A DNA stretch of 54,679 nt from Cognaticolwellia sp. Its GTDB lineage: Bacteria > Myxococcota_A > UBA796 > CAJQPC01. Shown in pieces: positions 22,198 through 49,612 of this stretch. A program made the translations under genes and the position numbers. The DNA lies in assembly GCA_047621545.1 (NCBI GenBank), contig JBLHMA010000001.1, positions 1-54,679 of the forward strand, read 5' to 3'. Each line of letters starts with the position of its first letter. Positions within the stretch are counted from its first letter, which is position 1. Under the pieces are notes generated by a model. The model was not told the DNA's origin. It did not search any database and saw nothing but the letters and a program-made list of their open reading frames with translations.

Positions 22198-22222
22198 AAG
22201 GCACCCACTCTTAAGGTAGGCC

Positions 22223-28054: not shown

Positions 28055-28056
28055 AC

Positions 28057-30471
28057 TCAGGGCTTGTTCGCCAAGGCGCGCACATCCGCAGGTGAGAGCC
28101 CTTCCGCCAAGCTGCGGGGCTCGGGTGGATGCGTCCCCAGAGAACGGGCCAGAGCACGGCGGCCCAGCCAAGCCAAGGTGCGCCAGCCGTTGTTGCCCGC
28201 CTCGATAACCACCTGGTTGGCGCGCTCCTGGGCCGCCGCGCGATCCCCCGCCTCCAGGCCGGCCTGGGCCAGCTGTAGCTGAATCCGCAGCCGCAGCACG
28301 GTGGGGGCCAGGTCCAGCACAGCATGGGCACGCTGAACAGCCTTCTCGTAGCCGCGCCGGTCTCCAATGCGGGCAGCACAGCGGGCCTGAATGGCGGCCG
28401 CCAGGGCAGACTCCACGGGTCCGATGGGCGCCTCGACCCGGTTCAACGCGCGGCCCACCCGGTCCAGGGCAGAGCTGGCCGCAGCGCGGGAGTCCGGCCG
28501 CTTGTCTAAGGTGGCCACGGCGCGCCAGAGGTGGGCCACACGGCGCTCATGGGGCCGGTCTTGGGCGCGGGCCAAAGCAACGGCATCGGCCAACCGGGCC
28601 TCGGCCAAGCGCAGCTGGCCCTGCTCCAACAAGATCAGTCCCATGCCGGCCTGAAGATCCATCTCCAGCGTGGGGTTTCGCTCCGCACGGGAGCTCTTGA
28701 TCAAGGCCTCGCAGGCCCGACGCGCCCCAGCGAGGACCCCCGAGAGGTGCAGGTCCATGGCCAGGTTCAAACGCTGACCAGGCTCTTGCTCCCCACGCGC
28801 TGGACGGGCTGGCGCGTCCTCGGCCCGGGCATCACCACAGGCCACCAGGTGGTGGTGGGCCTCGAAGTGCATCTCTCGATCTTCAAGGGCCAGCGCTGCC
28901 CGACGGTGCATGGCGTTCAGGTCTGGCAGGGCCTGCAGCGCTGCGCGCGCCACCAAGCGGCCGACCGGTGTGCTCCTGGAGGCGTGGGTGCGCAGCAGGC
29001 CTTCCTCCTCCAGCAGCATCAAGATGTCCTTGCACGGGATTAGGGCGACCTCCTCGACGAGCGCACGATCCGGCGGCTGGCGCAGGATGCAGACCGCGCA
29101 GAGCACGTCGAGCGCCTCCAAAGGGAGCTCCTCCACAGCCTCGATCAGGCGGCCTGGAGGCTCCAAGGGCACAGGCAACTCCAAGACCTTGCCCTGGCGG
29201 TGCTCGGCCAAGGTCGCCAAGAGCCAAGCGGGATGCCCACCGGTGGCCCGGTACAGGCGCTCGGCCACCAGGTGCGGCTCGGGGGTGTCGGGCCCCATGG
29301 AGACCACGGTACGGCGCAGATCCGCTGGGCCGACTGGCTCCAAGATGATGCGCACCGTCTCCACGTCGTCGGGCAGGCGAAAGCGGGTGGCGATCGCCAT
29401 GACCTCGCCGGCGCGCATCCGCCTTAGGCCGGCCGTCAGTGTGGGTTTGTCTCGCGCCACCAGGAGCGGCACCCCCAGAGTGCCAGCCAGCTCTTCGGCC
29501 ACCTCCAGCAGCCAAGAACGCCCAGATCCCGACACTCCCACAGACTGAATGGCCACCGCACGGCCCTGTTTGACCTGTTGCAGAGCCTCGCGAACCGCGT
29601 CCACGTACCGCTGCCGTCCAGCGAGAGGAGGAGGCGCCTTGGCCCCGCCCGTTGCCTGGAGAGCGCGCTTGGCCTGGCGGGCATTTGCTGGGCGGTCCTT
29701 GGCTTTCTTGGCCATCAACTTGAGAATGGCCAGCTCGAGCGCTGGGGGCACGCTGGGGTCGATGGCGCTGGGCTGCGGGATAGGCTCGTGCAGATGGGCG
29801 TAGACCACCTTGTCCCGCTCACGCCTGGGGTAGGGCGGCTGGCCGGTCAGCAGCGCGAACAGGGTGCAGCCCAGCCCATATAGGTCCGCGCGTCCGTCCA
29901 CCGGCTCACCGCGCAGCTGCTCGGGGGCGCAGTAGTTGGTCGTGCCGATCAGAGTGCCGGCGCGGGTGCGCTCCAGCTCCTCGGGATCCCGAATCACCCC
30001 AAAGTCGGAGAGCGCTACACGCCCGTTGGACTCCAGCAACACATTGGAGGGCTTTACGTCGCGGTGCACGATGTCCAGGTCATGCACAACGGCCAAGGCA
30101 TCGCAGAGGGCCACTCCAATGCGCTGGGTCTCGCGGTAGCGCTCGTGGGCTGGCCGCAGACGCAGCTTGTCGGCGTACACGAACAGGTCCTGGCCTTCGA
30201 CATACTCGATGACCATGTAGGGGCGGCCCTCGAAGTGGCCATCGTCGATGTAGCGCACGATGTTGGGGTGCTTGAGGCGCTTGAGCGCACGGATCTCCCC
30301 GGCAAAGCGCTGGACCACCCGGCCGGTCCCCTTGTCGAGCCACTTGACCGCAACCTCGACCCCGCGGGGGTCCACAGCCAGGTAGACCGCAGCCATACCG
30401 CCACGGCCCAAGAGGCGTAGAGGCAGGTAGGGGCCAATGGCCTCTGGGAAGGTGCTCGTTTGCTCAGACAT
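28057..30471 (-). CDS. Ser/Thr kinase fused to a degenerate P-loop NTPase and helical-repeat region (K2)
   Basis: GRGGMAAVY, VAVKWL, HRDVKPSNVL, DFGVIR, NYCAPEQ. Walker A-like GVSGSGRS has an Arg codon at 29518..29520. An Ala/Leu/Arg-rich TPR-like tail follows. Its stop lies 2 nt from the convergent methyltransferase stop. Confidence 0.9.
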   Translation of the reverse strand: MSEQTSTFPEAIGPYLPLRLLGRGGMAAVYLAVDPRGVEVAVKWLDKGTGRVVQRFAGEIRALKRLKHPNIVRYIDDGHFEGRPYMVIEYVEGQDLFVYADKLRLRPAHERYRETQRIGVALCDALAVVHDLDIVHRDVKPSNVLLESNGRVALSDFGVIRDPEELERTRAGTLIGTTNYCAPEQLRGEPVDGRADLYGLGCTLFALLTGQPPYPRRERDKVVYAHLHEPIPQPSAIDPSVPPALELAILKLMAKKAKDRPANARQAKRALQATGGAKAPPPLAGRQRYVDAVREALQQVKQGRAVAIQSVGVSGSGRSWLLEVAEELAGTLGVPLLVARDKPTLTAGLRRMRAGEVMAIATRFRLPDDVETVRIILEPVGPADLRRTVVSMGPDTPEPHLVAERLYRATGGHPAWLLATLAEHRQGKVLELPVPLEPPGRLIEAVEELPLEALDVLCAVCILRQPPDRALVEEVALIPCKDILMLLEEEGLLRTHASRSTPVGRLVARAALQALPDLNAMHRRAALALEDREMHFEAHHHLVACGDARAEDAPARPARGEQEPGQRLNLAMDLHLSGVLAGARRACEALIKSSRAERNPTLEMDLQAGMGLILLEQGQLRLAEARLADAVALARAQDRPHERRVAHLWRAVATLDKRPDSRAAASSALDRVGRALNRVEAPIGPVESALAAAIQARCAARIGDRRGYEKAVQRAHAVLDLAPTVLRLRIQLQLAQAGLEAGDRAAAQERANQVVIEAGNNGWRTLAWLGRRALARSLGTHPPEPRSLAEGLSPADVRALANKP

Positions 30472-30742
30472 TCGGACCTGACTCTATTCGGATGCGTAGG
30501 CCTGTGCGGGCAAGGAACAGAACCGTGACCGGAGACAAGACGGAAGAAGAGAAGACCGGCATCGGGGGGGTGTGCGCCCTCTGAGACCTATGATTTCGCC
30601 CGCGATGCATTTTGATGCTCGACAAGGATCACTCCACCCTATAGAACAATCGTGGGTTGAGTCTTCGGATTCCCCAGAGCTGGCCCTGTATGCCCCCCCA
30701 TTGGGGTCAGCTCACCCTTCCGGGACTCAACCGGACCCGGCC

Positions 30743-33700
30743 TCACAGCTTCCCAGCCAGCTCCGCTGCAATGGCGTTCGCTTCCCGCGTCCAGCCTGCG
30801 GCATCGGCTGGCTTGACGGCCAAGCTGGCCAACAGGCGCCGCGCTTCCAGATCCATCAGCTTTAGCCCCCGTGCCGCGCAGAGATGCGCTGCTGACCGGG
30901 CCACGCGCTCCGCGTCGCTCACATCTCCCAAGACCTGATGGGCGCGGGCGCACTCCATGAGCACGCGGGCACGCCTGGGGACCGGCAAGGCGTCGGCGCT
31001 ACGCTCGGCGGCCTGGAGCATTCGGCGGGCGTCTCCGGCGTCTCCGGTCAGGGCACAGGCCCAGGCGCTCAGGGCCACGATGGCGGGGCCGTAGGACTCG
31101 GGATCCTGGCGCTTGGCCAGGTTGCGCGCGATGGCCAGGTGGGCCTCAGCCGTAGTGGGATCCTCGTGACGAGCGGCCAAGCGTGCCAGTGACCAGCGGC
31201 AGGCGATGGTCTCCTGGTGCACCCCGAGTGGCTGGACCTCAGAGAGTGCCTGGCCCAGCGCCTTGCGGGCCTCGCCGTCCTCGCCCGCTTCCAGAAGGGC
31301 GTCGCCCAGAACCCGCAGAGCGGTGCCCCGACCCACCCGGAAGTGGATCTCTTCTGCTTCGGCCTGGGCCCGGCGAGCCGTGCGCTCAGCTTCCTGCAGA
31401 CGACCCTGCCACGTTCGCATTTCAGCCAGGTTGCACAGCGCGACACATCGGCTGGCTTTCTGGCCCAGCTCCTCAAAGAGCTTCTCAGCACTGGCAAGCC
31501 CGCGCGAGGCCAGATGGATCTGCCCCCGGGCCGCTTGGGCCGCCGACAGGGCGACCTGAAGATCTCCGCGGATGACCGCGCGTGGCGCCGCCAAGAGCAG
31601 CCCTTCCTCCGAGAGCTGCTGCACAGCGTCGAGATCCCCAGCTTCCCAAGCGAGCGCTGCCCGAGCGTAGAGAGCCTGGGCCACTGACTCCCGCAGCCGC
31701 CCTTCGCGGGCGTCGACCAAGGCTTGATCGGCCTGTTGAATGGCCAACTCGGGTTTCTCCAAGCGCGCCAAGACCCGAGCCAGGGTGCAGCGGGCGTTCA
31801 CAGACTCGGCGCTGGCTGGCAGCTTCTCGGCCGTACGAAGCAGAGCCAAGCTAGTCTTCTGGCAGTCCTCCCACTCTCCGCGCAGGTAGAGCACCTTGAG
31901 GCGCACGTCCAAGAGCGTGATGCGGGCAGCCACAAAGGCCGCCTCGGAGAGATCCGTGCGGGCCATCTCCTCCACCGCCATGGCCCGGGTGCTCAAGTCC
32001 CACGCGATGGCCGGCAAACTGCGGCCCTGCATGCGGTGGGCGGAGTCGGTCAGGTAGACAAAGGCCTTTCCGGCGTTTCCGGCCAGACGAAAGTGCTCAC
32101 CCACCTGCTCCAGATGCCGTGGCTGGTGCTCGGCAGCCACTTCCAAGGCGGCGGCCAGAGCCTCGTGGAGGCCAGCCCGGTCTTGGGAGTCCAGGCCTCG
32201 GTAGACCACGTCCGCAAGCAAACGGTGAGAGCACTCGTGCAGTACGGCGCTGCCACGTCGTTTTTCGCGGATCAGACCGCTTCCAATCAGAGCATCGAGC
32301 TGGTCGAGCACCTCGTCTTCGTCCTTGTCCAAGACCTCCAAGAGCAGATCCAGGTCCAGAGATCCGCCGGCGACCGCCAAGACGTTGAGGACCTCTCGCG
32401 CTTGGTCTCCCACAGCCTGCAGACGTTGGCGCACGACGGCCTGTACACCCCGAGGGATCTCCAAGTGACCGGTGCGCACCTCTTCCGTGTCCGCGCTCAG
32501 GCGCAGGCCCTTGGTGGTGGAGGCGATCAGCCCCGACTGGAGCAGGGACTCCAAGAACTGGGTGATGAAGAGGGGGTTGCCCTCGGTCTCGGCGTGCAGG
32601 CGCTTTGAGAGCACCTCGCCGCGGGGACTCTGGCCGATCAAGCTCTCGACAAGCTGACCCACGGCGTACTCGGAGAGGGCCTCCAGGCGTACCTGGCGGG
32701 GGGCCACACCCAGGTCCTCCCCATCCAGAAGACGCTCGGTGTCCTGGCGGAGCTGGCCCTCTTGAGCCGAGAGCACGACCAGGAGCGGCAAGCCGGCGCC
32801 CACAAGGCTGCGGGTCAGGGTCGAGAGCAGCTCTACGCCGCGTCGGGGCAGCCGATGCACGTCGTCAAAGAGCAAGACGCGGGGTCCCTCGTCCAGCAGC
32901 TTGGCCATGACAGGTCGCAGGCGATCGGTCAGGCGGTACAGGGCGTCGCCCTTGGCTCGGCCTTCGCGTAGCTCGGTCACCGCCTCCTCCAGCTCGTGGG
33001 CGTGGGGGGCGTCCTGGAGCACCTGCTCACACAGATCCAAGAGCCCGTACAGGCTCTCCGCGTTCGGCTGCAGACGGTGATGGGGAATGCCGATAGCGCC
33101 GGCCCGGTCCTGCATCGCGTCAAGGAGTCGGCTGCGGCCCATGCCCACTCGCCCGCGCAGGCTGACCACGTTGCCCTCGCTCCGGGTCAGACGATCCACC
33201 GCGCTGTTGAGCAGCTCCAGCTCCGCGCCACGGCCAACGATGGGCGGCACCCAATCCTGACCTTCATCCTCCCGACCCGGCTGCAGCTGCTCCAAGCGGT
33301 AGAGGATCTCTCGGGCAGATTGGAAGCGCTCTTTGGGCTGCTTCTGGAGCAGCTTGGCGCAGATCTCGTCCAAGTGCCTGGGCACCTGAACTTCGAGATC
33401 CCGGGCCGAAGGTGGGGTCTGCTTGGTGTGCGCTTCCAGGTAGCCAGCCATGTCCTTGGCATCGAAGGGGCGGTAACCCGTGAGCATCGCAAAGAGCAGG
33501 ATGCCCAGGGAGTACAGATCCGAGCGGTGGTCGATCGGGGCGCCGGTGATCTGCTCCGGGCTGGCGTAGGCCCACGTTCCCACCAGGGTGCCGCTCTTAA
33601 AGGCGTCGTCTGGATCCAGATCCTTCACAATGCCAAAGTCGGTTAACTTGGCCCGTCCATCTTGATCGATCAGGATATTGCTGGGTTTCAGGTCCCGATG

Positions 33701-34147
33701 CACCAACCCTTTCTGGTGTACATGCGCCAGAGCCCTGCAGAGATCGACAAGGATCTCCTCGCAGCGTGTCCAGCGGTCTTCGGGGTTGTCCAGATAGCGG
33801 AAGCTCCGGATGGTCTGGTGCAGGTCCTTGCCGTCCACGTACTCCATGCAGATGTAGGGCTGCCCGTGCAGATCGCCGTAGGCATCCACCCGGATGACGT
33901 TGGGGTGTCGGATGCGGGAGAGCGCCCGGAACTCTCGGCGGAAGCGCTGCAGAGCGGAGCCCGTGTTCAGCCTGCTGCCCTTGAGGATCTTCAAGGCCAC
34001 TTGATCCTCGTTCGGGTCCCGCGCCAAGACCACATCGGCCATGCCCCCCGTACCGATCCTTTTGACGTATACGTAAGCCCCCAAGCGCCCGCCTGGAGCA
34101 ATGCGGGTGTCGCCGATCTCGAGCACGTCGGTGGAGGGCTGTGTCAC
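30743..34147 (-). CDS. Ser/Thr kinase / AAA-type (STAND-like) NTPase / TPR protein (K3)
   Basis: GTGGMADVV, VALKIL, HRDLKPSNIL, DFGIVK, WAYASPEQ. Walker A GRVGMGRS has an Arg codon at 33134..33136. Walker B-like is VLLFDDVH. A long TPR-like C-terminal region follows. GTG start. Confidence 0.9.
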   Translation of the reverse strand: MTQPSTDVLEIGDTRIAPGGRLGAYVYVKRIGTGGMADVVLARDPNEDQVALKILKGSRLNTGSALQRFRREFRALSRIRHPNVIRVDAYGDLHGQPYICMEYVDGKDLHQTIRSFRYLDNPEDRWTRCEEILVDLCRALAHVHQKGLVHRDLKPSNILIDQDGRAKLTDFGIVKDLDPDDAFKSGTLVGTWAYASPEQITGAPIDHRSDLYSLGILLFAMLTGYRPFDAKDMAGYLEAHTKQTPPSARDLEVQVPRHLDEICAKLLQKQPKERFQSAREILYRLEQLQPGREDEGQDWVPPIVGRGAELELLNSAVDRLTRSEGNVVSLRGRVGMGRSRLLDAMQDRAGAIGIPHHRLQPNAESLYGLLDLCEQVLQDAPHAHELEEAVTELREGRAKGDALYRLTDRLRPVMAKLLDEGPRVLLFDDVHRLPRRGVELLSTLTRSLVGAGLPLLVVLSAQEGQLRQDTERLLDGEDLGVAPRQVRLEALSEYAVGQLVESLIGQSPRGEVLSKRLHAETEGNPLFITQFLESLLQSGLIASTTKGLRLSADTEEVRTGHLEIPRGVQAVVRQRLQAVGDQAREVLNVLAVAGGSLDLDLLLEVLDKDEDEVLDQLDALIGSGLIREKRRGSAVLHECSHRLLADVVYRGLDSQDRAGLHEALAAALEVAAEHQPRHLEQVGEHFRLAGNAGKAFVYLTDSAHRMQGRSLPAIAWDLSTRAMAVEEMARTDLSEAAFVAARITLLDVRLKVLYLRGEWEDCQKTSLALLRTAEKLPASAESVNARCTLARVLARLEKPELAIQQADQALVDAREGRLRESVAQALYARAALAWEAGDLDAVQQLSEEGLLLAAPRAVIRGDLQVALSAAQAARGQIHLASRGLASAEKLFEELGQKASRCVALCNLAEMRTWQGRLQEAERTARRAQAEAEEIHFRVGRGTALRVLGDALLEAGEDGEARKALGQALSEVQPLGVHQETIACRWSLARLAARHEDPTTAEAHLAIARNLAKRQDPESYGPAIVALSAWACALTGDAGDARRMLQAAERSADALPVPRRARVLMECARAHQVLGDVSDAERVARSAAHLCAARGLKLMDLEARRLLASLAVKPADAAGWTREANAIAAELAGKL

Positions 34148-34222
34148 GGGAGCAGTGTAACTGCGAGTACGTCAGCGGACCCCAAGTTGAAACGGTAGCG
34201 TGCCCGTCCCCCAGGAGACTCC

Positions 34223-34639
34223 TTGCAAAGTACGGTAATTTGGACGGTCGGTATGGCCTTTGACGCCTCGCGCGACGGGCACAGCCTGGCCATGGACGCC
34301 ACGCCAAAAGACGGAGGCGACGGCGCCGCCCCAAGCCCCAAGGATCTGCTCTTGGCGTCCCTGGCCGGCTGTCTGGGCATCAGCGTGTTGTCGATCCTGC
34401 AGAAGATGCGCATGAGCCCGGACTCTTTTGTCGTCCATATCGATGGCACCGAGGGCCAAGAGCACCCGAAGGTGTTCACCGAGATCACGGTCACCTGCAA
34501 GTTTTCCGGACAGCTTTCAGCCGATCGCCTTCTGCGAGCCGTGCACCTGAGCGAGTCGCGCTACTGCCCGGTGAGCGCGATGCTGGCCCAGAGCTGCCCA
34601 GTGAACACGGTGGTGGAGCTCAATGGGGAGCGGGCTTAG
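34223..34639 (+). CDS. OsmC/Ohr-family peroxiredoxin-like protein
   Basis: GAAPSPKDLLLASLAGCLGISV and ESRYCPVSAML give the two conserved Cys in OsmC spacing. The TTG start is chosen because the family N-terminus (..W.G..F) lies upstream of ATG 34253. Confidence 0.85.
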   Translation: MQSTVIWTVGMAFDASRDGHSLAMDATPKDGGDGAAPSPKDLLLASLAGCLGISVLSILQKMRMSPDSFVVHIDGTEGQEHPKVFTEITVTCKFSGQLSADRLLRAVHLSESRYCPVSAMLAQSCPVNTVVELNGERA

Positions 34640-34656
34640 GCACCGTAGGCGCTGCG

Positions 34657-37600
34657 TCAGCCCGGAAACAGCCCCAGCCTCTGCAACCTGCCCACAAATC
34701 CCCGGCGTAGCTCCTCCGGCATGCCCGAGAGCTGCCTTTGCACCAGCTCGCGCAGCTCCTGACTCGGCGGCACGCCTAGTGCCCCAAGGCAGAGCAACGA
34801 CTCCATGCGAAGCGACGCCATTCCCGGCCCCTCACACAGCTCTGAGCAGCGCTTGGCGTGCCCCATGGCCGCTCCAGAGGCGCCCTCGCGAATCATCGCC
34901 CAGGCCCGATACAGCTCCCAACGGGCCGCATCGACCAAGGTGGCCGGCGCCGCATCCAGAGCGGGCAGGCCGCGCACGGAGGAAGGCCCCAGGATCTGGA
35001 GCGCCAGGTTGTGCAGCAGGTCCTGTCCCACCGCGTCCAAGACTGGGTCCCCAGCCTCCTGGGCGATGAGTCCGGGCAGCATCGCATGGCACTCGTCCAT
35101 GTTGCCAGCGCTCATGTACGCCTCGGTCAACAGCAGCTGAGAGAGCGAGAGTAGATCAGCTTGCTCGACAGATTTTGCCAAACGCAGAGCCTGCCTTCCG
35201 CGATCCAGCGCGACCCGCAGCCTTCCGTCAAGCAAGGCCAGGTTGCCGCTGTAGAGCAAGCACAGCGCCAAGTCCCGAGGGGCCTGGTCCGGCAGCTTGC
35301 GCTCGGCCAACTCCAGCGCTCGCGCGGCGCGAATCAGGCTGCCAGCGCGCAGCTCCAGATGCCCCAAACCCAAGAGACAGCGACCCTCCTGGGCAGGTTC
35401 TCCGCTGCGACGGGCGGCGGTCAGAGCCTCCTCCCAGGTGCGCGCCGCGTCCGCCCGGCGGCCGTCCTGCAAAAAAGCCTCGGCCAAGGCACGGATACAG
35501 GCGTGGCGAACGGCGGTGTTCTGGGGGAGCACCGTCAAGGCGCCCTGCAGGTGTGTTCGGGCAGCGCTTGGATGCCCCATTGCGAGCAGGGCCATGCCCA
35601 AGCGCGCCTTGGTCTCAGCGCCAAGCAGGTCCGTACTGGACAGCTCCAGAGCCGCCTGCAGCGCCAGTCCGGCCTCGTCCGCGCGACCCAGCTCCAAGAG
35701 TGCGTGGCCCTGCAGAGCCAGGAGCTGACGCATGAGTTCCTGCTGGCCAGCATCCTTGACCAACCCCCGGACCTCCAAGGCCCGCTCAGCCAATAGCAGG
35801 GCGGCGCTTACCCGGTGGCGGCGCATGCTCCATTGGGCGGCCCGAGCCAACAACGGCCAGGCCTGCTCGGACTCGCCAGCCCGCAGAAAGTGGGTGGCAG
35901 CGCGCTCCGCTACCGAACCTTGTCGGCGGCGGTGCTTACGGATGAGCAGCTCTGCGGCGGCGCGGTTTAGGCGTGCCCGGTCACTCCCATCCAGGCCCTC
36001 GAGTACGACACGTTGTGTGTCCTTTCGGGCAAAGCGCAGCTGCTCTTGTAGTCCCTCACCGGCACGGAGCACGATGGGATCCAAGGCCTCGGTGCCCAGG
36101 GCCCGCGGACCGCCGGGACACAGCCCCGCGATCAGGCCCAGATCGGCCTCGCCGTCTAGGATGGCTAGGGCCTGCAGGGCCCTACGCTGGGTAGGCTCCA
36201 GCTCTACCAGGATGCCCTCGACAAGCTCCCTGTGCGCCTGGGGAACCGGCAAGTCCCCACCGCGCACCCGGGCACCTGGAACGGTGAGCTCCAGAGCGCC
36301 ATCGCTGCGCTCACGCAGCCAGCCGGCCTCGTGAAAGGCCTGAACAGACTCCAGGATCGCTCTTGGGTTTCCGTCACACCAGCTGTGCAGGCGCGCACCT
36401 GAGAGGGTGGCGGCTTTGCCGGCAAAGCCTTGGTCCCGGAGCAGCGTGATGGTGGCCTTTCGGGAGATGGGACCGCAGTCCAAAGGTTCGGACTGCACAT
36501 CGATCAGCAGGCCCGCACTCAGGCGCTCCAGCAGGTAGCTAGTGTCCTCGCTTAGGGGACTGTTCACCTGCCCGGTCAATCCGTAGATCACCAGCAGACG
36601 GCCACGGGAACGGGTGTCCCGCAGCAGAGCCTCCAGAGCCCCAATCTCCGGACGCTTTGCCGCATCCAGATCGTCGATAAGCAACACCAACGGTTGCTCC
36701 AGCCCTTCTCGGAGCAGGGGCTCGACGTGCTCCTTGATGGTGTTGGAGAGTCCCCCTTCACAGGGCAGCTGCACCCCATGGTGGACCAAACCGAGCTCCA
36801 GGGCCTGCTCCTCGATGGCGGCCAACAGCACGCTGCGACCGCTCCCTGGCAGTCCCAAAAGCGCGACCTCACCGCCCTCTCCCCGGCGCAAGCCCTGCAG
36901 CCGCTGGCCGCTCTGACGCAGCAGCTCATCTCTGCCGTGCAAGCGCAGGCTGGTCTGGGCTTCGGGAGCGTCCAGGGCCTCGATCACCTCTATCGCCGAT
37001 TGAGGACGCTGGGCGGGATCCTTTCGCATCAGCTTCATGCACAAGCGAGAGAGCTTGCGCGGGCAACGGGGATCCACCTGCAGGGGTGGCGGTGGGTCCT
37101 CCATCAGGTGCTTGGCCAGGTAGCCGGCGATGGAGTCGGCCTCGACCGGGCGGCGTCCCGTCAGCATCACGTAGAACACAGCGCCCAAGGCGTAGAGATC
37201 CACGCGCGGGCTGATCTCATCCTCGGTGATCTGCTCGGGGGCCATAAACGCCACCGTACCCACCAGGTGCCCGGCCATGGTCAGGTTGGTGGTGAACTGG
37301 TCGGGGGCTTTGACCGAGCCAAAGTCGGTCAGCTTGGGCAGGCCCTCTCGGTCAACCAGGATGTTGCTGGGCTTGATGTCGCGGTGAACCAAGCCCTTCT
37401 CATGGATGTGGGCCAGGGCTGAGCACAAGCCGCGCAACAGACGGGCCGCTTCCCCAAAGCGGTCCATTGTAGGCCGCTCGTCCCATCTCTTTAGCAGCGA
37501 ATCCAGAGTTCCACCGCCCACATACTCCAGGGACAACCATGGGTATCCCTGCTCTTCTCCAGATGAAAGCACCTTGACCACGTGTGGGCTATCCATCAGC

Positions 37601-37818
37601 TTCATCGCGATGAACTCACGGTGAATGCGGGTCACCTGCTCGGGGGTGGTGCGGTTGGGGCTCATGACCTTGACGGCCACCTCGCCCTCGGGACCCTGGG
37701 CTCGCCAAACAGTCGCAAGACCACCGGAGCCCACCCGCTCCAAGAGACGGTAGGGGCCTACCACAGAACCAGGACCTGGGGGTGGTCCCAGGTGTCGGGG
37801 GCCATTGCGCACACTCAT
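34657..37818 (-). CDS. Ser/Thr kinase / AAA-type (STAND-like) NTPase / TPR protein (K4)
   Basis: GSGGLATVW, VAVKVM, HRDIKPSNIL, DFGSVK, VAFMAPEQ. Walker A GLPGSGRS has an Arg codon at 36835..36837. Walker B-like is LVLLIDDLD. ATG 37818 is preferred over TTG 37824. Confidence 0.9.
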   Translation of the reverse strand: MSVRNGPRHLGPPPGPGSVVGPYRLLERVGSGGLATVWRAQGPEGEVAVKVMSPNRTTPEQVTRIHREFIAMKLMDSPHVVKVLSSGEEQGYPWLSLEYVGGGTLDSLLKRWDERPTMDRFGEAARLLRGLCSALAHIHEKGLVHRDIKPSNILVDREGLPKLTDFGSVKAPDQFTTNLTMAGHLVGTVAFMAPEQITEDEISPRVDLYALGAVFYVMLTGRRPVEADSIAGYLAKHLMEDPPPPLQVDPRCPRKLSRLCMKLMRKDPAQRPQSAIEVIEALDAPEAQTSLRLHGRDELLRQSGQRLQGLRRGEGGEVALLGLPGSGRSVLLAAIEEQALELGLVHHGVQLPCEGGLSNTIKEHVEPLLREGLEQPLVLLIDDLDAAKRPEIGALEALLRDTRSRGRLLVIYGLTGQVNSPLSEDTSYLLERLSAGLLIDVQSEPLDCGPISRKATITLLRDQGFAGKAATLSGARLHSWCDGNPRAILESVQAFHEAGWLRERSDGALELTVPGARVRGGDLPVPQAHRELVEGILVELEPTQRRALQALAILDGEADLGLIAGLCPGGPRALGTEALDPIVLRAGEGLQEQLRFARKDTQRVVLEGLDGSDRARLNRAAAELLIRKHRRRQGSVAERAATHFLRAGESEQAWPLLARAAQWSMRRHRVSAALLLAERALEVRGLVKDAGQQELMRQLLALQGHALLELGRADEAGLALQAALELSSTDLLGAETKARLGMALLAMGHPSAARTHLQGALTVLPQNTAVRHACIRALAEAFLQDGRRADAARTWEEALTAARRSGEPAQEGRCLLGLGHLELRAGSLIRAARALELAERKLPDQAPRDLALCLLYSGNLALLDGRLRVALDRGRQALRLAKSVEQADLLSLSQLLLTEAYMSAGNMDECHAMLPGLIAQEAGDPVLDAVGQDLLHNLALQILGPSSVRGLPALDAAPATLVDAARWELYRAWAMIREGASGAAMGHAKRCSELCEGPGMASLRMESLLCLGALGVPPSQELRELVQRQLSGMPEELRRGFVGRLQRLGLFPG

Positions 37819-37890
37819 GCCCAAAGTCTACCGCGATCCCAGCGTCAATCCGCCGCACCGCCGTCTACATCCCGTGGTTAGCTTCACCTC

Positions 37891-39120
37891 ATGCCGTCTT
37901 CCCGACCCGAATGGCTCGCTGACCGGCGCGCCGCCCAGCGTTTTCTGGTGCAGCTCAGGTGGGCGGGCATGGCCTTAGTCGCAGTCGCAAGCGGCATCGC
38001 CATGTTCCTGGATCGCAGCCTGAGCCCTTGGCCCTTGCTGATTCCAATCGGCCTGCAAGCCATCTCGAATGTGGCCCTGCACCAAGCCACCAAGCAGCTG
38101 CCGGCGCCAAGCTGGCTCGCCACCGGGGCGCTGGTCTTCGACGTGGTCTTATTGACCCTCGTGCTCAGTCTCAGCGGCGGCGCGATGAACCCCTTCTCGG
38201 CCAGCTATCTGACCTTGATCGTAGTGGCCTCGCTCATCCTGCAGCGCGCAGGGGTCGTCACCGTGGTGGTGGCCTGCGCGGTGCTATACGGCAGCCTGTT
38301 CTTGCTGCCCGCCGCCGGCCACGCCGCCCAAATGCGCGGACATCTACTGGGCATGTGGCTGGGTACCGGATTGGTCGGCGCCTTTGTCTCGGTGGCGATC
38401 CTGCGCTTCCGGCGCGCACTGGCCAACGCCGAGGCCGAGCTGCTTGATGCACAAGTCAGCCAAGCCCGAAGCGCCCAGCTCGCTGCCCTGGGAACGCTAG
38501 CCGCCGGTGCCGCCCACGAGCTGGCCAGCCCCCTGACCACCGTGGCCGTCATTTCCAAGGAACTAAGTTTGCGCCTGGAGAACTCACAGGACAGGGAAGA
38601 CGCCCAAGTTCTCCGCGAGGAGGTTGACCGCTGCCGTGAAATCCTCTCCCAGATGGCCGTTCAAGTAGGCAGCTCACCGGCAACCAGCACCGCCCCCATC
38701 GCCATAGAGACACTCTTGGAGCACGCCCTACAAGGCATCGCCCCAAATCCCCGCGTCCGGGTCGAGCTGCAACCCGCAACCATTCGTGTGCCAAAAGACC
38801 TGATGGCCCAAGTCGTCCGCTCCCTGGTGCGGAACGCCCAGCAGGCCTCCGGTCCAGAACAGTCCGTCTTGCTGCAGGTGAAAACCAGCCCTGAACACGT
38901 GGAGATCCGCATCGAAGACCACGGCCACGGCATGAGTCCCAAAGTCTTAGAGCGGGCCACCCAGCCCTTCTTCACCACCAAGGAGCCAGGCCGCGGCATG
39001 GGCTTGGGCCTGTTCGTCGCCGACTCTGTGCTGCGCCAGCTTGGCGGCACCCTTACCCTGGAGAGCATGCCCGAGCAGGGCACCACCGCCATCCTCTCCC
39101 TACCCACGGAGAACCCATGA
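37891..39120 (+). CDS. regB: RegB/PrrB/ActS-type redox-sensing histidine kinase
   Basis: Multi-TM N-terminus containing GGAMNPF (38176..38196), which matches the GGxxNPF quinone-site heptapeptide of RegB. H-box AAGAAHELASPLTT. A Cys flanked by Arg (R-C-R, 38629..38637) sits after the H-box. G1 is DHGHGM and G2 is GRGMGLGL. Confidence 0.8.
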   Translation: MPSSRPEWLADRRAAQRFLVQLRWAGMALVAVASGIAMFLDRSLSPWPLLIPIGLQAISNVALHQATKQLPAPSWLATGALVFDVVLLTLVLSLSGGAMNPFSASYLTLIVVASLILQRAGVVTVVVACAVLYGSLFLLPAAGHAAQMRGHLLGMWLGTGLVGAFVSVAILRFRRALANAEAELLDAQVSQARSAQLAALGTLAAGAAHELASPLTTVAVISKELSLRLENSQDREDAQVLREEVDRCREILSQMAVQVGSSPATSTAPIAIETLLEHALQGIAPNPRVRVELQPATIRVPKDLMAQVVRSLVRNAQQASGPEQSVLLQVKTSPEHVEIRIEDHGHGMSPKVLERATQPFFTTKEPGRGMGLGLFVADSVLRQLGGTLTLESMPEQGTTAILSLPTENP

Positions 39121-39635
39121 AAGAGAGCATTCTGGTTGTAGAGGACGATCTGCGTCTGGCCAGCGCCATGGCCAACGCTCTGGAACGCCGTGGTCACCCC
39201 ACCTCGGTCGCCCATGATGCAGAAGAGGCCATCGAGTCCATGGCCGAGTTTCCCAGCGACTGGGTTCTGCTCGACCTGAAGGTTCCTGGCGCCAAAGGCT
39301 TGAGCATCCTGGCCGAGCTGATGCACCGAAATGTGCCTCCTCAGGTGGTGCTGCTCACTGGCTTTGCAAGCTTGGCCACCGCGGTGGAGGCCGGCGCTCT
39401 GGGCGCGCTCCAAGTCCTACAGAAACCAGCCGACGCAGACGAGGTCTTGGCAGCCTTTCAGCACGCCACCAGAGACCAGGATCTAACCGCCCCGACCCTG
39501 GCTCGGGCCGAGTGGGAACACATCCAGCGGGTGCTGGAAGAGTGCGGCGGCAACATCTCCCAGGCGGCCCGGATTCTGGGCCTGCACCGGCGCACCCTCC
39601 AGCGAAAACTAGGGAAGGATGCGCCGAAGCGCTGA
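39117..39635 (+). CDS. regA: RegA/PrrA/ActR-type response regulator (REC plus Fis-type HTH)
   Basis: ATGA overlap with the kinase (39117..39120). REC motifs are VVEDD and VLLDLKVPG. The C-terminal AEWEHIQRVLEECGGNISQAARILGLHRRTLQRKL closely matches the RegA HTH as I recall it. Confidence 0.85.
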   Translation: MKESILVVEDDLRLASAMANALERRGHPTSVAHDAEEAIESMAEFPSDWVLLDLKVPGAKGLSILAELMHRNVPPQVVLLTGFASLATAVEAGALGALQVLQKPADADEVLAAFQHATRDQDLTAPTLARAEWEHIQRVLEECGGNISQAARILGLHRRTLQRKLGKDAPKR

Positions 39636-39720
39636 GTCGAGGGTGAACCAGGGTCTGAGCTGCACTCAGGCCTTCTGGCGATCCATCCAACGCAGCACCG
39701 CTGGGTACGCATCTACCCTT

Positions 39721-39805
39721 TACACCCTCGATCAGGCAGACTGACCACATGCGAGGCTTGCGCTCGCACGCCTCCCACGGATCATCTTGCCTGACCGAGG
39801 GCGTA
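39721..39805 (+). mobile_element. MITE copy B: 85-bp internal-deletion derivative
   Basis: It has the same termini and TA flanks as copies A and C. The central 79 bp are missing, exactly between two CGCCTCC direct repeats present in copy C. The right end abuts the K5 stop codon (39806..39808). Confidence 0.85.
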
Positions 39806-42800
39806 TCAGCCGTGCGCGATACTCGCGCACACAGCCATGAGACGCTTACCGTCCTCGCGGCCCAAGTTGGCCGACAAGGTGCGGGCCAAGGCCCGAGAGA
39901 CCCGCCCATGCATGGAGACGCTGGCATCTTCCTCGGAGAAGCGGGCCAACAGGCAGTGGGACTTGAGGGCGTAGAAACGGAAACCACAGGTCTCCGCTTG
40001 GCTCAGCGCCTCCTTGGCGCGCTTGTTCGCCTCGAAGAGCAGTCCGCTGGCTCCAAGCGCCCACGCTGCAATGAGATCCAAGCGAATGCGCTGGTGCGGC
40101 CAGGGCCTACCCACATTGGCGTAGGCCAACTCGACTGCAGCGAGCACCTGCTCCGAGGGAGCACCACGCTCGGCCAAGAGGCGGCCACGCCAGGCCCGAA
40201 CCAGAGGACCGAAGCCCTCCAAGTCGTAGCGGCCCAGAAGCTCTTCGACCCGCACCAGCTCGCGTTCCACCTCGTCCAGGCGACGCTCGCGCAGCGCGAT
40301 ACGAACCAGAGTGATGCGCACGGCCAGTTCGTCATCGTGCCGGTGTAGCCGTTCGCTGAGCATCAGGGCTTCCGCCGCGGACTCACGGGCATCTGCCAGG
40401 CGCTCCAGATCCACCAAGACCAGGGCACGGTACTGCAGGCCGATGGCCACGCCGTTCTGGTAGCGGGTCTCCCGAGCCTGGGAGATGGTGCGATCGGCCA
40501 GCTGCATGGCCCGGCGCAGGTTGCCCGTGCAGTGACACAGCTCCACCAGGTTTACCCGGGCCACCATCAAAGGCCCCAGCTTGCCCAAGCGAGAAAAGGT
40601 CTCTACCGACTGCTCCAGGTATTTCCTGGACTCTGCCGCTTGACCCTTGCACAGGGCAACCAGCCCCAGGCCGGTGTAGCCCTGGGCCAATGCCTCGTCG
40701 TCATGCACCGCGCCCGCCGCGCTCAGAGCCTCCAGCCAGTGCTGCCGGGCCCCGTCCAGGTCCCCCCGGTTCCAGCGCACTGACGCCATGCCGTGCAGGG
40801 GGGCGACCTGCAGAGTGGTGTCCCCCAAGCGGCGCGCCATGGACAAGGCCTCGGTGTAGCGGTCCTCGGCGGTGTCCAGATCTACGTCCCGGCGGGCGGC
40901 GGAGCCCAGAGCTGCCAGAGTGCGTGTGCGTAGGCGCTCATCGCCGATGGCCAAGGCCAGCTCGTCGGCCTGATACTGGTCCAGATCCGCCTCTTCACTG
41001 CGCCCAAGATGCTCCATGGCCTGTCCACGGCGCAGCAGCAGCGTTGCCAGCGCCCTGTCGGCGTCCTCCAAGGTCATGTACTCGCGGGCGTCGGGCTCCA
41101 CGGCCAGGGCCCGGTCGTAGAAGACCTCGGCCTCCCCCACAAAGCTGCGGTCCTGAAGACGGATGCCCGCACGTAGCAGGTAGGGGTAGGCCTTGGCGGG
41201 CAGCTCTCCCTGCTCGAAGTGCCATGCAATGGCCTCGACGACGGTGGAGATCCGGTGCCTGTACAGACGCTCCAACGTGGCCCCAAGCCGGCGGTGCAGT
41301 TGCCGCCGCAGTTGATCGGGCATCCCCTCCAGCAAAATGTCCTGCAGCCTAGGCCTGGCCAGCTCGTAGAGCTCATCCATGCCGCCTAAACGCGCCCGAA
41401 TAAGACCGTGGTCCAGAAGCGCTTCAAGCTCCAGGAGGAGCTCAGTCTCGGTGGTGCGCAGGGCTTCGAGTAGGGCGTCTAAGGTGAGTTCTTGCCCGGA
41501 GACGGCCAAGACACGAGCCACCGCAAGCGAGGACGGACTGAGCTTGGTCAGCCGCGCACGCAGAGCGTCCCGAATGCTGGCCGGGATGGGCAACCGGGCC
41601 TGGGCAACCAGCGCCGTATCCAGCTCCAATCTATAGCCAGTCTCGGCTGGCTGAATGACCCCCTGGGCCACCAAACCGCGAATCATCTCGGCGATAAAGT
41701 GCGGGTTTCCCTCGCCTTCTCGATGCAGGCGAGTCGCAAGGGTGCGGGAGCGCTCATCGTCTGGAATGAGCTGAAGCAGCATCTCCTCGACCGCGGAGAT
41801 CGAGATGGGCTGCAGGGAGAGCACCCGAGGCGCGATGCCACTGGCCGTGTCCTCGAACAGCCCAGCCAGGGGGTCCAGCACCTCGCCTGCCTTTCGACCC
41901 AAGACGAAGAGGATGGGGTCGCTGGAGAGGTGCAGGTGGTTGCGGAGCAAGAACTCCAGCATCGCCACCGCGCCCCGACGGGCCCGGTGAACCTCGTCCA
42001 AGATGATGACCAGCGGCATGTGCTCCCGCAAGAGATCGCGGGTGGCCGTGAGAAGCTGGTAGCGCTCCAAGGTGCCCTGGGCCTGACCGAAGGCCACATC
42101 CAGAGGAGCGGGCAAGACCGTCAGCTTTAGGTCTGCGAGGATGCCGTCAAACCCACCGAACTCGTGGTCGTCGCGCCCACAGCGGCCCGCGAGAACACGA
42201 AGACCCAAGCTTTCGGCACGCTCCTGCACGACCCGCAGCAGCGCGCTCTTTCCAAAGCCGGGGGCGCCCTCCACCACGATGGAGCCACCGCGGCCATTCT
42301 GGAGTTGGGAGAGCGCCTCACGCAGCTGGGCGAGCTCAGAGACCCGGCCAACCAAGCGAACGGGAAAGCGCTTTAGATCGACCGCCGCACGCTGGTGCTG
42401 ATCTAAGACCGAGAGCAGGTGCCTTGCGCTACCGTAGCGGGCCACCGGGTCCTTCTCAAGCAGCCGCATGCACACCCCGTCCAAGTGAGCGGGCACCGTG
42501 GGGCTCACTTCTCGTGGAGACCGCGGTACTTGATGCAGGTGCTTGTCCAATAAGCTCGCCACCGAGTTGGCCTGAAAGGGCCTCCGGCCGGTCAGCATGT
42601 AGTAGAAAACCGCGCCCAGCGAATACAGGTCTGCCCGCGCGTCGACCCGGCCGTTGCCAATCTCTGCGGAGATCTGTTCCGGGGAGATCCAGGCCACCGT
42701 ACCGACCATCTCACCGACGGTGGTCAGCTCTGCGCCAGGCATATGCACCACACCAAAGTCCATCAACACCGCTCGACCACTGGCGTTGACGCGAATGTTA

Positions 42801-43246
42801 CCGGGGGTCACGTCCCGGTGTACCAGGCCTTGCTCGTGCACAGCAGCTAAAGCCTGAGCAACTTGTACCAGGAGGGTCTCGCAGCGAGCGTAGCGCTTCT
42901 CCGGGGGAAGCTCCGCCCAAGCCAAAACCTCGGCCTTTAGATCTCGGCCGTCCAAGCATTCCATGGTGAACCACAGGCGGCCCTCGTGCTCACCATTCTC
43001 ATTCACCCGCAGAATATGGGGATGTTTCAGCCCTTTCAGAGTCTGAAATTCCGCCACAAAGCGCTGCCGAAGTTCGGTGGAACTCAGTCCGCCGTGCAGC
43101 AGCTTTAGAGCCTGGAGGGAGCCATCTCGGCTGTCGCGCACCCGCAGAACGGTCGCCATACCGCCACGACCCAGAGTCTCCAGGACCTGGTAGTGGCCAA
43201 TGCTTGCACCTGGTGAGGTGTCCGGCTCTGGTGGTGGGGGGGCCAT
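39806..43246 (-). CDS. Atypical Ser/Thr kinase / AAA-type (STAND-like) NTPase / TPR protein (K5)
   Basis: GRGGMATVL, QALKLL, DFGVVH, VAWISPEQ. The catalytic loop reads HRDVTPGN (42797..42820), with Thr where HRDxKxxN has Lys. Walker A GAPGFGKS is canonical (Lys codon 42248..42250). Walker B is LVIILDEVH. Confidence 0.9.
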   Translation of the reverse strand: MAPPPPEPDTSPGASIGHYQVLETLGRGGMATVLRVRDSRDGSLQALKLLHGGLSSTELRQRFVAEFQTLKGLKHPHILRVNENGEHEGRLWFTMECLDGRDLKAEVLAWAELPPEKRYARCETLLVQVAQALAAVHEQGLVHRDVTPGNIRVNASGRAVLMDFGVVHMPGAELTTVGEMVGTVAWISPEQISAEIGNGRVDARADLYSLGAVFYYMLTGRRPFQANSVASLLDKHLHQVPRSPREVSPTVPAHLDGVCMRLLEKDPVARYGSARHLLSVLDQHQRAAVDLKRFPVRLVGRVSELAQLREALSQLQNGRGGSIVVEGAPGFGKSALLRVVQERAESLGLRVLAGRCGRDDHEFGGFDGILADLKLTVLPAPLDVAFGQAQGTLERYQLLTATRDLLREHMPLVIILDEVHRARRGAVAMLEFLLRNHLHLSSDPILFVLGRKAGEVLDPLAGLFEDTASGIAPRVLSLQPISISAVEEMLLQLIPDDERSRTLATRLHREGEGNPHFIAEMIRGLVAQGVIQPAETGYRLELDTALVAQARLPIPASIRDALRARLTKLSPSSLAVARVLAVSGQELTLDALLEALRTTETELLLELEALLDHGLIRARLGGMDELYELARPRLQDILLEGMPDQLRRQLHRRLGATLERLYRHRISTVVEAIAWHFEQGELPAKAYPYLLRAGIRLQDRSFVGEAEVFYDRALAVEPDAREYMTLEDADRALATLLLRRGQAMEHLGRSEEADLDQYQADELALAIGDERLRTRTLAALGSAARRDVDLDTAEDRYTEALSMARRLGDTTLQVAPLHGMASVRWNRGDLDGARQHWLEALSAAGAVHDDEALAQGYTGLGLVALCKGQAAESRKYLEQSVETFSRLGKLGPLMVARVNLVELCHCTGNLRRAMQLADRTISQARETRYQNGVAIGLQYRALVLVDLERLADARESAAEALMLSERLHRHDDELAVRITLVRIALRERRLDEVERELVRVEELLGRYDLEGFGPLVRAWRGRLLAERGAPSEQVLAAVELAYANVGRPWPHQRIRLDLIAAWALGASGLLFEANKRAKEALSQAETCGFRFYALKSHCLLARFSEEDASVSMHGRVSRALARTLSANLGREDGKRLMAVCASIAHG

Positions 43247-43353
43247 CGTCTCGCCCTAAAGTCCGGTGTGACTGCCGTGTAAGAGGAACCCGGCTTATAG
43301 TGCGTATCCCGCTGATTCAACCCCGAAAAGCCCCGCCAGGAAAAGGACCTTCC

Positions 43354-44118: not shown

Positions 44119-44545
44119 GTCAACAGGCGAAGCGCTGCTCAGCACTCCGGCTCCCTTTGGCAAGATCCGCGGCATCCTGGTGGCCATGGCCGTCTTCTGG
44201 GCTCTAATGAGCCTGGTGACCGTCTACGGGAACACCCAGCTCAGCGCGGAGGATCTCGGGGACACCCCTCTCTGGGCCACAGTCGCGGCCCCCGCTTTTG
44301 TGGGGCTATTCTCCGCCCTGGCCGCGTGGCGCACCCGCCCCGGAGACCGCCAAGGCTGGGGTTTGGGGGTCAGCGCAATGGCCCTAAACCTTCTTGGCTG
44401 CGTCACCGCACCTCTGGCCATCTGGGGCATCCTTATGCTCTTTAAGCCAACTACAAAGGCACAGATGCTCGGGGGCCGCTTTGCAAAGCCCCTTCCCCAA
44501 CGGGGTTTAGCTGCGACGCCGCCGGAGCCCAAGCAGACCGACTAA
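44111..44545 (+). CDS. Small integral membrane protein coupled to the PP2C gene
   Basis: ATG 44111 overlaps the PP2C stop by 8 nt. Three or four hydrophobic helices are present (ILVAMAVFWALMSLVTV, LWATVAAPAFVGLFSALAAW, VSAMALNLLGCVTAPLAIWGILMLF). Its 3' end overlaps the convergent trypsin gene by 39 nt. Confidence 0.5.
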   Translation: MTESTGEALLSTPAPFGKIRGILVAMAVFWALMSLVTVYGNTQLSAEDLGDTPLWATVAAPAFVGLFSALAAWRTRPGDRQGWGLGVSAMALNLLGCVTAPLAIWGILMLFKPTTKAQMLGGRFAKPLPQRGLAATPPEPKQTD

Positions 44546-48556: not shown

Positions 48557-48634
48557 GGGGACTCCGGGGTCGGTATACGTCCAGGGTAGACACATGGTGG
48601 ACGGTGCCGATGCAAAGCCCACGTCATGCTAGGC

Positions 48635-49498: not shown

Positions 49499-49612
49499 CT
49501 CAAGCTCCCGGCGTGCGCTCTCCTAACGGGTGCCCTGCCCAAGTGTGAGAGAGGTGAAGGGTCCAAGTGCCCAGGGTCTGGGCTAGGTTGTGTCCACCTA
49601 AGGAGAACCCCA

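Follow-up and report, generated by a model that had tools for sequence, protein, structure and literature searches.

An ancient cassette of a PP2C phosphatase and paralogous STAND kinases in uncultured Myxococcota, with probably non-equivalent nucleotide sites

When neighboring genes each lack a residue expected in an active site, are they copies in decay or parts of one working system? The question is raised by a 54,679-nucleotide (nt) stretch of DNA from Cognaticolwellia sp. (placed by GTDB in Myxococcota_A; assembly GCA_047621545.1, contig JBLHMA010000001.1), which was analyzed over its whole length and is called the window below. It contains four giant genes, K2 to K5, all on the minus strand, each encoding a protein kinase followed by P-loop NTPase sequence. 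The Walker A Lys is Arg in K2, K3 and K4; K5 keeps that Lys and lacks the Lys of the kinase catalytic loop. An earlier note on this DNA described an array of kinase, NTPase and TPR proteins, each paired with a small stress or signaling gene and showing reciprocal motif degeneration, and left undecided whether it was a sensory or immune-like module or simply myxobacterial kinase expansion. Our preferred reading, to which we give a probability of about 0.6, is that K2-K5 and a PP2C gene form an ancient chromosomal cassette of one phosphatase and three to four paralogous STAND kinases, acting in one pathway with non-equivalent nucleotide sites. Its genes and motifs are the following.

28057-30471, minus strand: K2; canonical kinase, then a remnant of the STAND NTPase domain (NOD) without Walker B, and a helical C-terminus.
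29515-29538, minus strand: Walker A-like motif of K2, GVSGSGRS(W); Arg codon CGT at 29518-29520.
30743-34147, minus strand: K3; canonical kinase, NOD and arm/TPR sensor.
33131-33154, minus strand: Walker A of K3, GRVGMGRS; Arg codon CGC at 33134-33136.
34657-37818, minus strand: K4; canonical kinase, NOD with Walker A Arg and without sensor-1 Arg, TPR region.
36832-36855, minus strand: Walker A of K4, GLPGSGRS; Arg codon CGC at 36835-36837.
39806-43246, minus strand: K5; Hanks-type kinase, STAND NTPase (NOD) and TPR sensor, with an atypical catalytic loop and a canonical Walker A.
42245-42268, minus strand: Walker A of K5, GAPGFGKS; Lys codon AAG at 42248-42250.
42797-42820, minus strand: catalytic loop of K5, HRDVTPGN, in which Thr147 replaces the catalytic-loop Lys.
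43354-44118, plus strand: PP2C (Stp1/IreP-type) Ser/Thr phosphatase, matching Pfam PP2C/PP2C_2, divergent from K5.

The strand and coordinates that the earlier note gave for K2-K5 coincide exactly with our open reading frame (ORF) calls, and all four ORFs are intact. The start of K4 is the ATG at its 37818 end; an in-frame TTG also lies at 37824. The ORF of the phosphatase is open from 43204, its likely start being the GTG at 43354, 107 nt from the start of K5. Its product scores 233.3 bits against the NCBIfam model Stp1_PP2C_phos (NF033484; cutoff 230), which places it in the Stp1/IreP family.

All four giants have a kinase domain, matched by Pfam Pkinase with E values of 1e-37 to 1e-51. K3 and K5 also match AAA_16 above its gathering score of 32.6 (51 and 63 bits) and TPR_MalT above its cutoff of 45 (45.8 and 57.1 bits). 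K4 reaches 23 bits for AAA_16, under the cutoff of 32.6, and matches TPR_MalT weakly; its layout is that of K3 and K5, and the motifs are present. K2 matches kinase families only, AAA_16 being absent. In a BLASTP alignment K2 matches K3 through the kinase and Walker A as far as K3 residue 355 and resumes at residue 452; relative to K3, about 97 residues of its NTPase core are gone, Walker B among them, and the deletion is common to K2 orthologs. An AAA_16-type NOD with both Walker motifs, of the forms GxxGxG[KR]S and hhhhD[DE], is therefore recognized by profile in K3 and K5, by motifs only in K4, and not in K2.

The fold agrees with these assignments. An AlphaFold2 model of K3, made with a family alignment as input, has a predicted local distance difference test (pLDDT) score of 86.3. 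In Foldseek comparisons, its kinase domain resembles Mycobacterium tuberculosis PknB (template-modeling [TM] score 0.83-0.89, 33% identity), and the remainder aligns over 724 columns (E 2e-11) with 6mfv_A, a STAND protein with a TPR sensor, at a TM score of only 0.41 because the domain orientation differs. A sequence search of the PDB with the NOD-TPR part of K5 returned weak TPR matches only; 6mfv was reached through the fold search with K3. An arm and a MalT-like TPR sensor thus lie C-terminal to the NOD, in a fold like that of solved STANDs, and these arm and TPR regions are the most divergent parts of the proteins (30-41% identity). K2-K5 combine a Hanks-type Ser/Thr kinase with a STAND NTPase of the MalT/PknK type and a TPR sensor. 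The profile assignments that the earlier note had proposed as a check bear it out: there is one kinase-NTPase-TPR architecture, the genes are true paralogs, and K2 has lost its NTPase core.

How far does this arrangement extend beyond the window? One genome per GTDB species was scanned with a K3-family alignment, which gave 79 loci, taken with flanks of 10 kb, that all belong to uncultured Myxococcota-type metagenome-assembled genomes (MAGs). Their ORFs were annotated against the window proteins, start codons were estimated from alignments, orthogroups were seeded by best BLAST matches to the window proteins, and the tree was built by neighbor joining. K3 has thousands of full-length homologs. 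The order of a PP2C gene followed by K5-K4-K3(-K2), and often then by a trypsin-like gene, recurs in dozens of genomes down to about 30% identity; most of the 79 loci have the cassette, as do 7 of 8 extra contigs. In 40 of the 41 loci with sufficient sequence upstream, PP2C and K5 are divergent; K4 comes next after K5 in 38 of 47 loci, and K2 next after K3 in 23 of 51. Upstream of K3, K4 was present in 33, K5 in 35 and PP2C in 32 of 47 loci. A scan of metagenome contigs with a K4-family alignment, which carries generic kinase motifs, added no cassettes: the 80 loci among the matches listed were unrelated kinases, aligned over residues ~17-300.

The spacing of the genes is tight. The estimated median intergenic gaps are 38, 87 and 26 nt, and in contigs with called genes the cassette neighbors abut or overlap by 1-4 nt, which fits cotranscription and translational coupling. 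K5-K4-K3(-K2) is probably a cotranscribed operon. A scan of positions 27800-44300 of the window for sigma-70 promoters and intrinsic terminators found 0 promoter-like sites, and terminator-like sites were fewer than shuffled sequences gave. The wider neighborhood is conserved as well: relatives at 45-50% identity share with the window the genes for an ABC transporter, DUF4340, peptidase M14 and UbiA, and the trypsin genes. The cassette therefore occupies a stable chromosomal locus.

The paralogs are also old. In a neighbor-joining tree of 188 sequences, K2, K3, K4 and K5 are each monophyletic, and distances are 1.6-1.9 between paralog groups versus 0.9-1.2 within an orthogroup. The duplications therefore predate this clade. 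With orthologs in dozens of genomes and four monophyletic orthogroups, the suggestion of a simple myxobacterial kinase expansion fails, and the phylogeny contradicts a recent tandem origin. Nor are the genes unrelated insertions, an outcome that the earlier note had recognized as fatal to its proposal; they belong to one conserved, tightly spaced cassette.

Against this background, what do the Walker A substitutions mean? Arg in K2, K3 and K4 and Lys in K5 were reported at exactly the right positions, except that the K2 motif is only Walker A-like. In the K5 orthogroup the site holds Lys in 37 sequences, Arg in 10 and other residues in 3, with Lys at the root and at least 8 changes by parsimony. 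K4 is the reverse (39 Arg, 8 Lys, 3 others; root Arg; at least 9 changes), and K3 is divided (35 Lys, 32 Arg; root Arg; at least 9 changes). K2 has 13 Arg, 4 Lys and 1 Leu, an ambiguous root (Lys or Arg) and at least 3 changes; in its orthogroup a Trp always follows the Walker A-like motif. Among the 120 best homologs of K3 the site is Lys in 71, Arg in 40, Val in 5, Cys in 2 and Thr in 2, and the nearest 20 all have Arg or Cys. A search of representative proteins gave 12 Arg, 3 Lys and 1 Leu among K4-like representatives; distant kinase-AAA_16 families mostly keep the canonical GK[ST]. Arg is thus the norm in K4, in K2 and in the K3 clade of the window, which is the sequence half of what the earlier note had set down as counting against a locked NTPase.

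Around this site little else moves. Across the orthogroups essentially no variation is seen in the glycines of the P-loop or in the Ser/Thr that follows, and Walker B D[DE] is kept in the Arg-bearing NODs of 32 of 32 K3 and 38 of 39 K4 orthologs. That these positions stay fixed while the Lys site flips argues that Walker A Arg is a tolerated, constrained variant and not a lesion; "degeneration" is the wrong word for it. The Arg codons are CGY, two steps from any Lys codon. All 14 human NLRPs carry GxxGxGKT (PMC9633759), in contrast to the Arg P-loops described here. The second residue expected of a STAND NOD beside an invariant Walker A Lys, the sensor-1 Arg, is also distributed unevenly. K3 of the window has Gln in its sensor-1 stretch (LSAQE) versus Arg in most orthologs, and K4 lacks the sensor-1 Arg in the window and mostly in its orthologs. 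Within the window, K5 alone joins Walker A Lys, Walker B DE and sensor-1 Arg.

The kinase domains give the complementary picture. Both earlier observations, intact kinase motifs in K2-K4 and the missing catalytic-loop Lys in K5, are correct. K2, K3 and K4 have the loop HRD[VLI]KPSN plus DFG and carry every Hanks kinase feature (Gly-rich loop, beta3 Lys, HRD Asp, loop Lys/Asn, DFG and APE). K5 has all of these but the loop Lys, and retains beta3 Lys, HRD Asp, DFG Asp and APE. Of the K5 orthologs, 40 have Thr at the loop position, 7 have Ser and 1 has Asn, with Thr as the ancestral state; every K2, K3 and K4 ortholog has Lys there. When 1.84 billion representative proteins were searched exhaustively, 19 of the K5-family representatives had Thr, 6 Ser and 1 Asn; a K5-like fragment (P0193) has Lys there. 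This is the sole conserved kinase-domain position that sets K5 apart from K2-K4, and the K5 kinase domain is as well conserved as that of K4 (mean pairwise identity 0.56).

Is K5, then, an impaired kinase, as had been proposed? A pseudokinase is conventionally defined by loss of beta3 Lys, HRD Asp or DFG Asp, and K5 and its orthologs keep ALK, HRD and DFG. The motif therefore does not establish impairment, and an ancestral Thr/Ser in a domain conserved to this degree does not amount to degeneration. A 2025 review of bacterial pseudokinase families describes nothing resembling K5 (PMC12599244). What survives is the reciprocal pattern itself, which is real and conserved by orthogroup: an atypical loop with, usually, Lys in K5, and a canonical kinase with Arg in K4 and K2. 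These motif states exceed chance because they recur in orthologs across dozens of genomes. Together with the NOD deletion of K2, the stable signatures argue that the members are not redundant, and the paralogs probably act in one pathway with non-equivalent nucleotide sites.

If the sites are non-equivalent, a cassette might be expected to keep at least one Lys-bearing NOD. Among the first 34 complete cassettes none was without a Walker A Lys across K5, K4 and K3, versus 1.9 expected from a column shuffle (P = 0.087). Seven further cassettes came from contig look-ups and had been picked for a non-Lys K3 (Val, Thr, Cys or Arg); a Fisher test was therefore conditioned on the K3 state. K5 has Lys in 7 of these 7, so complete cassettes without any Walker A Lys number 0 of 41. 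K5 and K4 are both non-Lys in 0 of 19 cassettes when K3 is non-Lys and in 5 of 22 when K3 has Lys (one-sided P = 0.035, or 0.03-0.06 after de-replication by K3 identity, values that are only marginally significant and not phylogenetically corrected). The pattern weakly favors non-equivalent NTPase sites.

Several observations weigh against the idea of one pathway with divided roles, in addition to the marginal size of these P values. The evidence base is sequence from uncultured MAG relatives, from which mechanism has to be inferred. Cassette proteins have a strong Arg bias (R:K of 4-6:1), so that Lys-to-Arg drift at a merely tolerant site is plausible. In two MAGs (JBEIQK01 and CAXQUZ01) all retrieved members have Arg; their cassettes are dispersed over contigs and the MAGs are incomplete. 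In three loci (L072, L081 and L082) the PP2C-K5 pair stands alone, its K5 having Arg and a degenerate Walker B. In DASCPX01 the cassette is split, with K5-K4 and K3-K2 on different contigs. In locus L168 (2724-15917) K5 is inverted, giving K5 on the minus strand and PP2C, K4, K3 and K2 on the plus strand; the divergent PP2C/K5 pair is retained, and the phosphatase heads a K4-K3-K2 operon in which K4 and K3 overlap by 4 nt. Such variants show that strict co-translation is not obligatory.

The main rival explanation builds on such facts. Its proposal is that the paralogs are parallel, independent sensors: coregulated homo-oligomers with their own ligands, phosphorylating the same or different substrates. 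NOD hydrolysis would then be dispensable, PP2C being the off-switch; the Lys/Arg flips would be near-neutral drift under GC and Arg bias, and the missing zero-Lys cassettes a sampling accident. The 8-9 or more changes at the Walker A site in each of K5, K4 and K3, the Arg-rich composition, the marginal P values, the split or partial cassettes and all-Arg MAGs, and the divergence of the TPR/arm regions, as different ligands would predict, all suit this explanation. It has more difficulty with a gene order held to ~30% identity with overlapping stop and start codons, and with the absence of Lys-free cassettes. Moreover, the fixed signatures (the Thr loop of K5, Arg without sensor-1 Arg in K4, the NOD deletion of K2) imply specialized, non-redundant roles, and K2, its NOD being deleted, cannot act as a STAND switch on its own. 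We regard parallel sensing as possible and lean against it.

Two further explanations fare worse. STAND NTPases with TPR sensors are common in defense systems, and the cassette might accordingly be an anti-phage or immune-like module, with STAND sensors for invader proteins and kinases as effectors. Its kinase domains do match defense kinase models, a methylase gene abuts K2, and inactive STANDs occur in conflict systems of multicellular bacteria, as described in PMC7159879. However, a search of the cassette against PADLOC-DB v2 matched the kinase models PD-T4-6, mad6 and MkoA only and none on the NOD or TPR parts, and the matches span the generic kinase domain alone (residues ~10-300). The neighborhood is chromosomal and stable, descent is vertical and orthologous, mobile-element context and a MoxR/vWA partner are lacking, and the methylase is confined to the 3 closest relatives. 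An immune-like role is thus very improbable. As for recent lineage-specific tandem duplication with copies decaying to pseudoenzymes, myxobacterial kinomes are large and rich in tandem duplicates (Perez et al. 2008, as cited in PMC11032199), and part of the NOD has been lost in K2. Yet the distances between paralogs exceed those within orthogroups, orthologs occur in dozens of genomes, the ORFs are intact with conserved motif scaffolds, and the deletion in K2 is itself kept in K2 orthologs. A tree with four old monophyletic orthogroups contradicts recent duplication, to which we give almost no credence.

Returning to a single pathway with non-equivalent sites, the cassette might work as follows. 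MalT-type STANDs, whose subfamily includes PknK-type kinases, are described as returning to rest by ATP hydrolysis (PMC4381067). By analogy with MalT, signal binding by the TPR/arm sensors would open the NOD, permit nucleotide exchange and drive oligomerization. Oligomerization would bring kinase domains together for trans-phosphorylation and output, and PP2C would reset the phosphorylation state. Arg P-loops would still bind nucleotide and hydrolyze it poorly; the Lys-bearing NOD, usually that of K5, would supply a hydrolysis-dependent reset. The Thr-loop kinase of K5 would be a specialized, low-activity or regulatory partner. K5, K4 and K3 may hetero-oligomerize. A stronger version, an obligate hetero-oligomeric STAND "kinasome," would make the Lys-bearing NOD (usually K5) the timer and reset and leave the output kinases to the Arg-bearing NODs of K4 and K3 and to the NOD-less K2; we think this unlikely.

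It is useful to contrast the cassette with systems that are already known, as kinase-STAND fusions and kinase/PP2C pairs are. PknK, MalT and PH0952 (6mfv) have the same order of effector, NOD (Walker A/B, AAA_16), arm and TPR sensor, with a Hanks kinase as effector in PknK, and Ser/Thr kinases are among the described members of the MalT subfamily of STANDs (PMC4381067, PMC6468293). However, PknK and MalT are single genes, whereas here three to four paralogs stand in a conserved, probable operon with PP2C; Walker A Arg in about half of the members, one Lys-less catalytic loop and one deleted NOD are further differences. The PknB-PstP and Stk1-Stp1 pairs likewise place an Stp1/IreP-family PP2C beside PknB-like kinase domains (TM 0.8-0.9). 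In the cassette, unlike in these pairs, one phosphatase stands beside three to four STAND kinases that are cytoplasmic and have neither a PASTA nor a transmembrane sensor, and the arrangement is divergent.

Some plant sensor NLRs tolerate or carry degenerate P-loops, and the helper needs an intact one. The sensor/helper pairs RRS1/RPS4 and RGA5/RGA4 are, like K2-K5, linked paralogous STANDs with divided roles (PMC10698375). They differ in having a NOD of the NB-ARC clade, other effectors, a head-to-head rather than co-directional arrangement and an immune function, so the likeness is one of functional analogy only. The iSTANDs of MoxR-vWA ternary conflict systems in multicellular bacteria are described as a case of predicted-inactive STAND NTPases (PMC7159879) and offer a precedent of that kind; here, unlike there, MoxR/vWA partners are absent and the P-loop scaffold and Walker B are conserved.

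Closer to the cassette in composition are giant proteins in which two kinase-AAA_16 modules are fused. Members such as P0253, P0203 and P0189 show the same themes of a Lys-less loop and an Arg P-loop, at ~28% identity to K5 and in one polypeptide instead of an operon; P0253 and P0189 each have two Pkinase and two AAA_16 matches in Pfam. One family (P0199, P0203, P0211, P0227, P0253, P0262, P0264) is ~2,420-2,460 residues long; the loop of its first module reads HRDLKPSN, and that of its second usually carries Thr, Asn or Arg in place of Lys, HRDx(T/N/R)PxN. A second family (P0184, P0189, P0208; 2,650-2,830 residues) has loops of the form HRD[IV][ST][SAP]RN, resembling the tyrosine-kinase motif, in both modules and G..G.GRS at both Walker A sites. 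The fusion of a canonical with a Lys-less module hints, as a precedent, that kinases may be paired in the cassette too. Full-text literature searches found no description of such a multi-paralog operon, of a Thr-loop kinase of this type or of a natural Arg Walker A in kinase-STANDs.

Which other neighbors belong to the system? The genes lying among or beside those of the cassette in the window are these.

26205-27164, plus strand: trypsin-like serine protease (Pfam Trypsin), on the K2 side.
27254-28054, plus strand: C5-methylase-like ORF (PF00145, DNA_methylase), ending 2 nt from the K2 stop.
34223-34639, plus strand: OsmC-like gene (Pfam OsmC), between K4 and K3, 75 nt from the K3 start.
37891-39120, plus strand: HisKA/HATPase histidine kinase (Pfam), between K5 and K4, 72 nt from the K4 start.
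39117-39635, plus strand: Response_reg+HTH_8 regulator (Pfam), directly after the histidine kinase.
44507-45493, 45543-46547, 46598-47500 and 47546-48622, minus strand: four trypsin-like proteases in a row (Pfam Trypsin), on the PP2C side.

The divergent spacings of 66-107 nt described earlier hold (75 nt for OsmC and K3, 72 nt for the histidine kinase and K4, 107 nt for PP2C and K5). That each giant is paired with a small stress or signaling gene does not: PP2C alone is an ancient partner, and the others occur in the closest relatives only. OsmC is present in the 4 closest (L002, L004, L005, L006). The two-component pair is complete in L004, represented by the histidine kinase only in L001 and L006, and absent in L002 and in L005, whose K3 is 92% identical. 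Among relatives with a K3 that is 92-93% identical, the block at 37891-39635 is thus present in some and absent from others, and about 100 nt upstream of K4 are conserved with L002 (L002:6186-6343) on both sides of the two-component indel. L001 and L006 have four more genes between K4 and OsmC (HXXSHH, PSD/PSCyt and two DUF6242-like). Such extra genes mark the K4-K3 and K5-K4 junctions as insertion hot spots in the lineage of the window.

Two names given earlier need qualification. RegB/RegA is the best NCBIfam match of the two-component pair, at scores under the equivalog cutoffs (194.9 versus 350 for the kinase, 141.4 versus 250 for the regulator), so the pair is at most RegB/RegA-like (ActS/PrrB/RegB, ActR/PrrA/RegA). 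The methylase gene does end 2 nt from K2, but its label "Dnmt2" is not established, the matches being the generic PF00145 and TIGR00675 dcm at 86.3 versus a cutoff of 100.65. Judged by their distribution, OsmC, the RegB/RegA-like pair and the methylase are recent lineage-specific insertions outside the conserved cassette.

The trypsins are a different matter. In 24 of 51 loci the 6 kb downstream of K3/K2 include a trypsin gene, and the five that flank the cassette in the window may be an output that it regulates or no more than conserved neighbors. Flanking trypsins are similar in L009 and L002, and three stand in a row in L167. Beyond the K2-side trypsin, 23488-26115 (minus strand) encodes an 875-residue protein with seven Cu-binding_MopE repeats (3e-66); MopE-type proteins also lie near the cassette in L002, L004, L026, L057, L078 and others. 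A Peptidase_M14 gene and an ABC_tran/ABC2_membrane/ABC_transp_aux/DUF4340 set (3648-4670 and 7808-12466, plus strand) are 15-25 kb from the cassette in the window and flank it directly in the distant relatives L163, L164, L168 and L169. This difference in distance points to long-range synteny, with ~15 kb inserted in the lineage of the window.

Other genes of the window lie apart from the cassette. K1 (2060-3667, minus strand) encodes a 535-residue plain Pkinase protein without NTPase or TPR. An ORF of 977 residues (49445-52378, plus strand) has no Pfam match, and one of 937 residues (19654-22467, minus strand) has Lactamase_B_2 in its last ~250 residues, preceded by ~670 residues without a Pfam domain. 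Two architectures are unusual: bacterial TSP3 repeats with a thrombospondin C-terminal-like region (6192-7700, minus strand) and a pentapeptide-repeat region fused to an Ion_trans_2 channel domain (16368-17549, plus strand).

What, finally, does the cassette mean for this group of bacteria and for STAND proteins in general? Kinase-STAND fusions such as PknK have been known as single genes, and little is understood of how they are regulated. Here they are members of a deeply conserved, probably operonic set of paralogs with its own phosphatase, and the active-site signature of each paralog is stable across a large uncultured clade of Myxococcota. The Walker A site, normally treated as invariant in P-loop NTPases, has undergone at least 25 Lys/Arg switches while the rest of the P-loop has stayed fixed. 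These natural variants make two questions concrete: whether hydrolysis is needed in every STAND subunit, and what role an Arg P-loop plays. If an obligate hetero-oligomer were to prove true, bacteria would have, without an immune function, a counterpart to sensor/helper NLR pairs and to heteromeric AAA+ rings in which some sites are degenerate, and STAND proteins would offer a natural case of an Arg-type Walker A that functions. Should the paralogs really divide the labor, they would be a parallel to sensor/helper NLR pairs that lies outside immunity; should they not, there is still a well-defined new conserved signaling cassette and a caution against reading Lys-to-Arg as decay. Overall, our work suggests that bacterial STAND kinases may work as multi-paralog assemblies.

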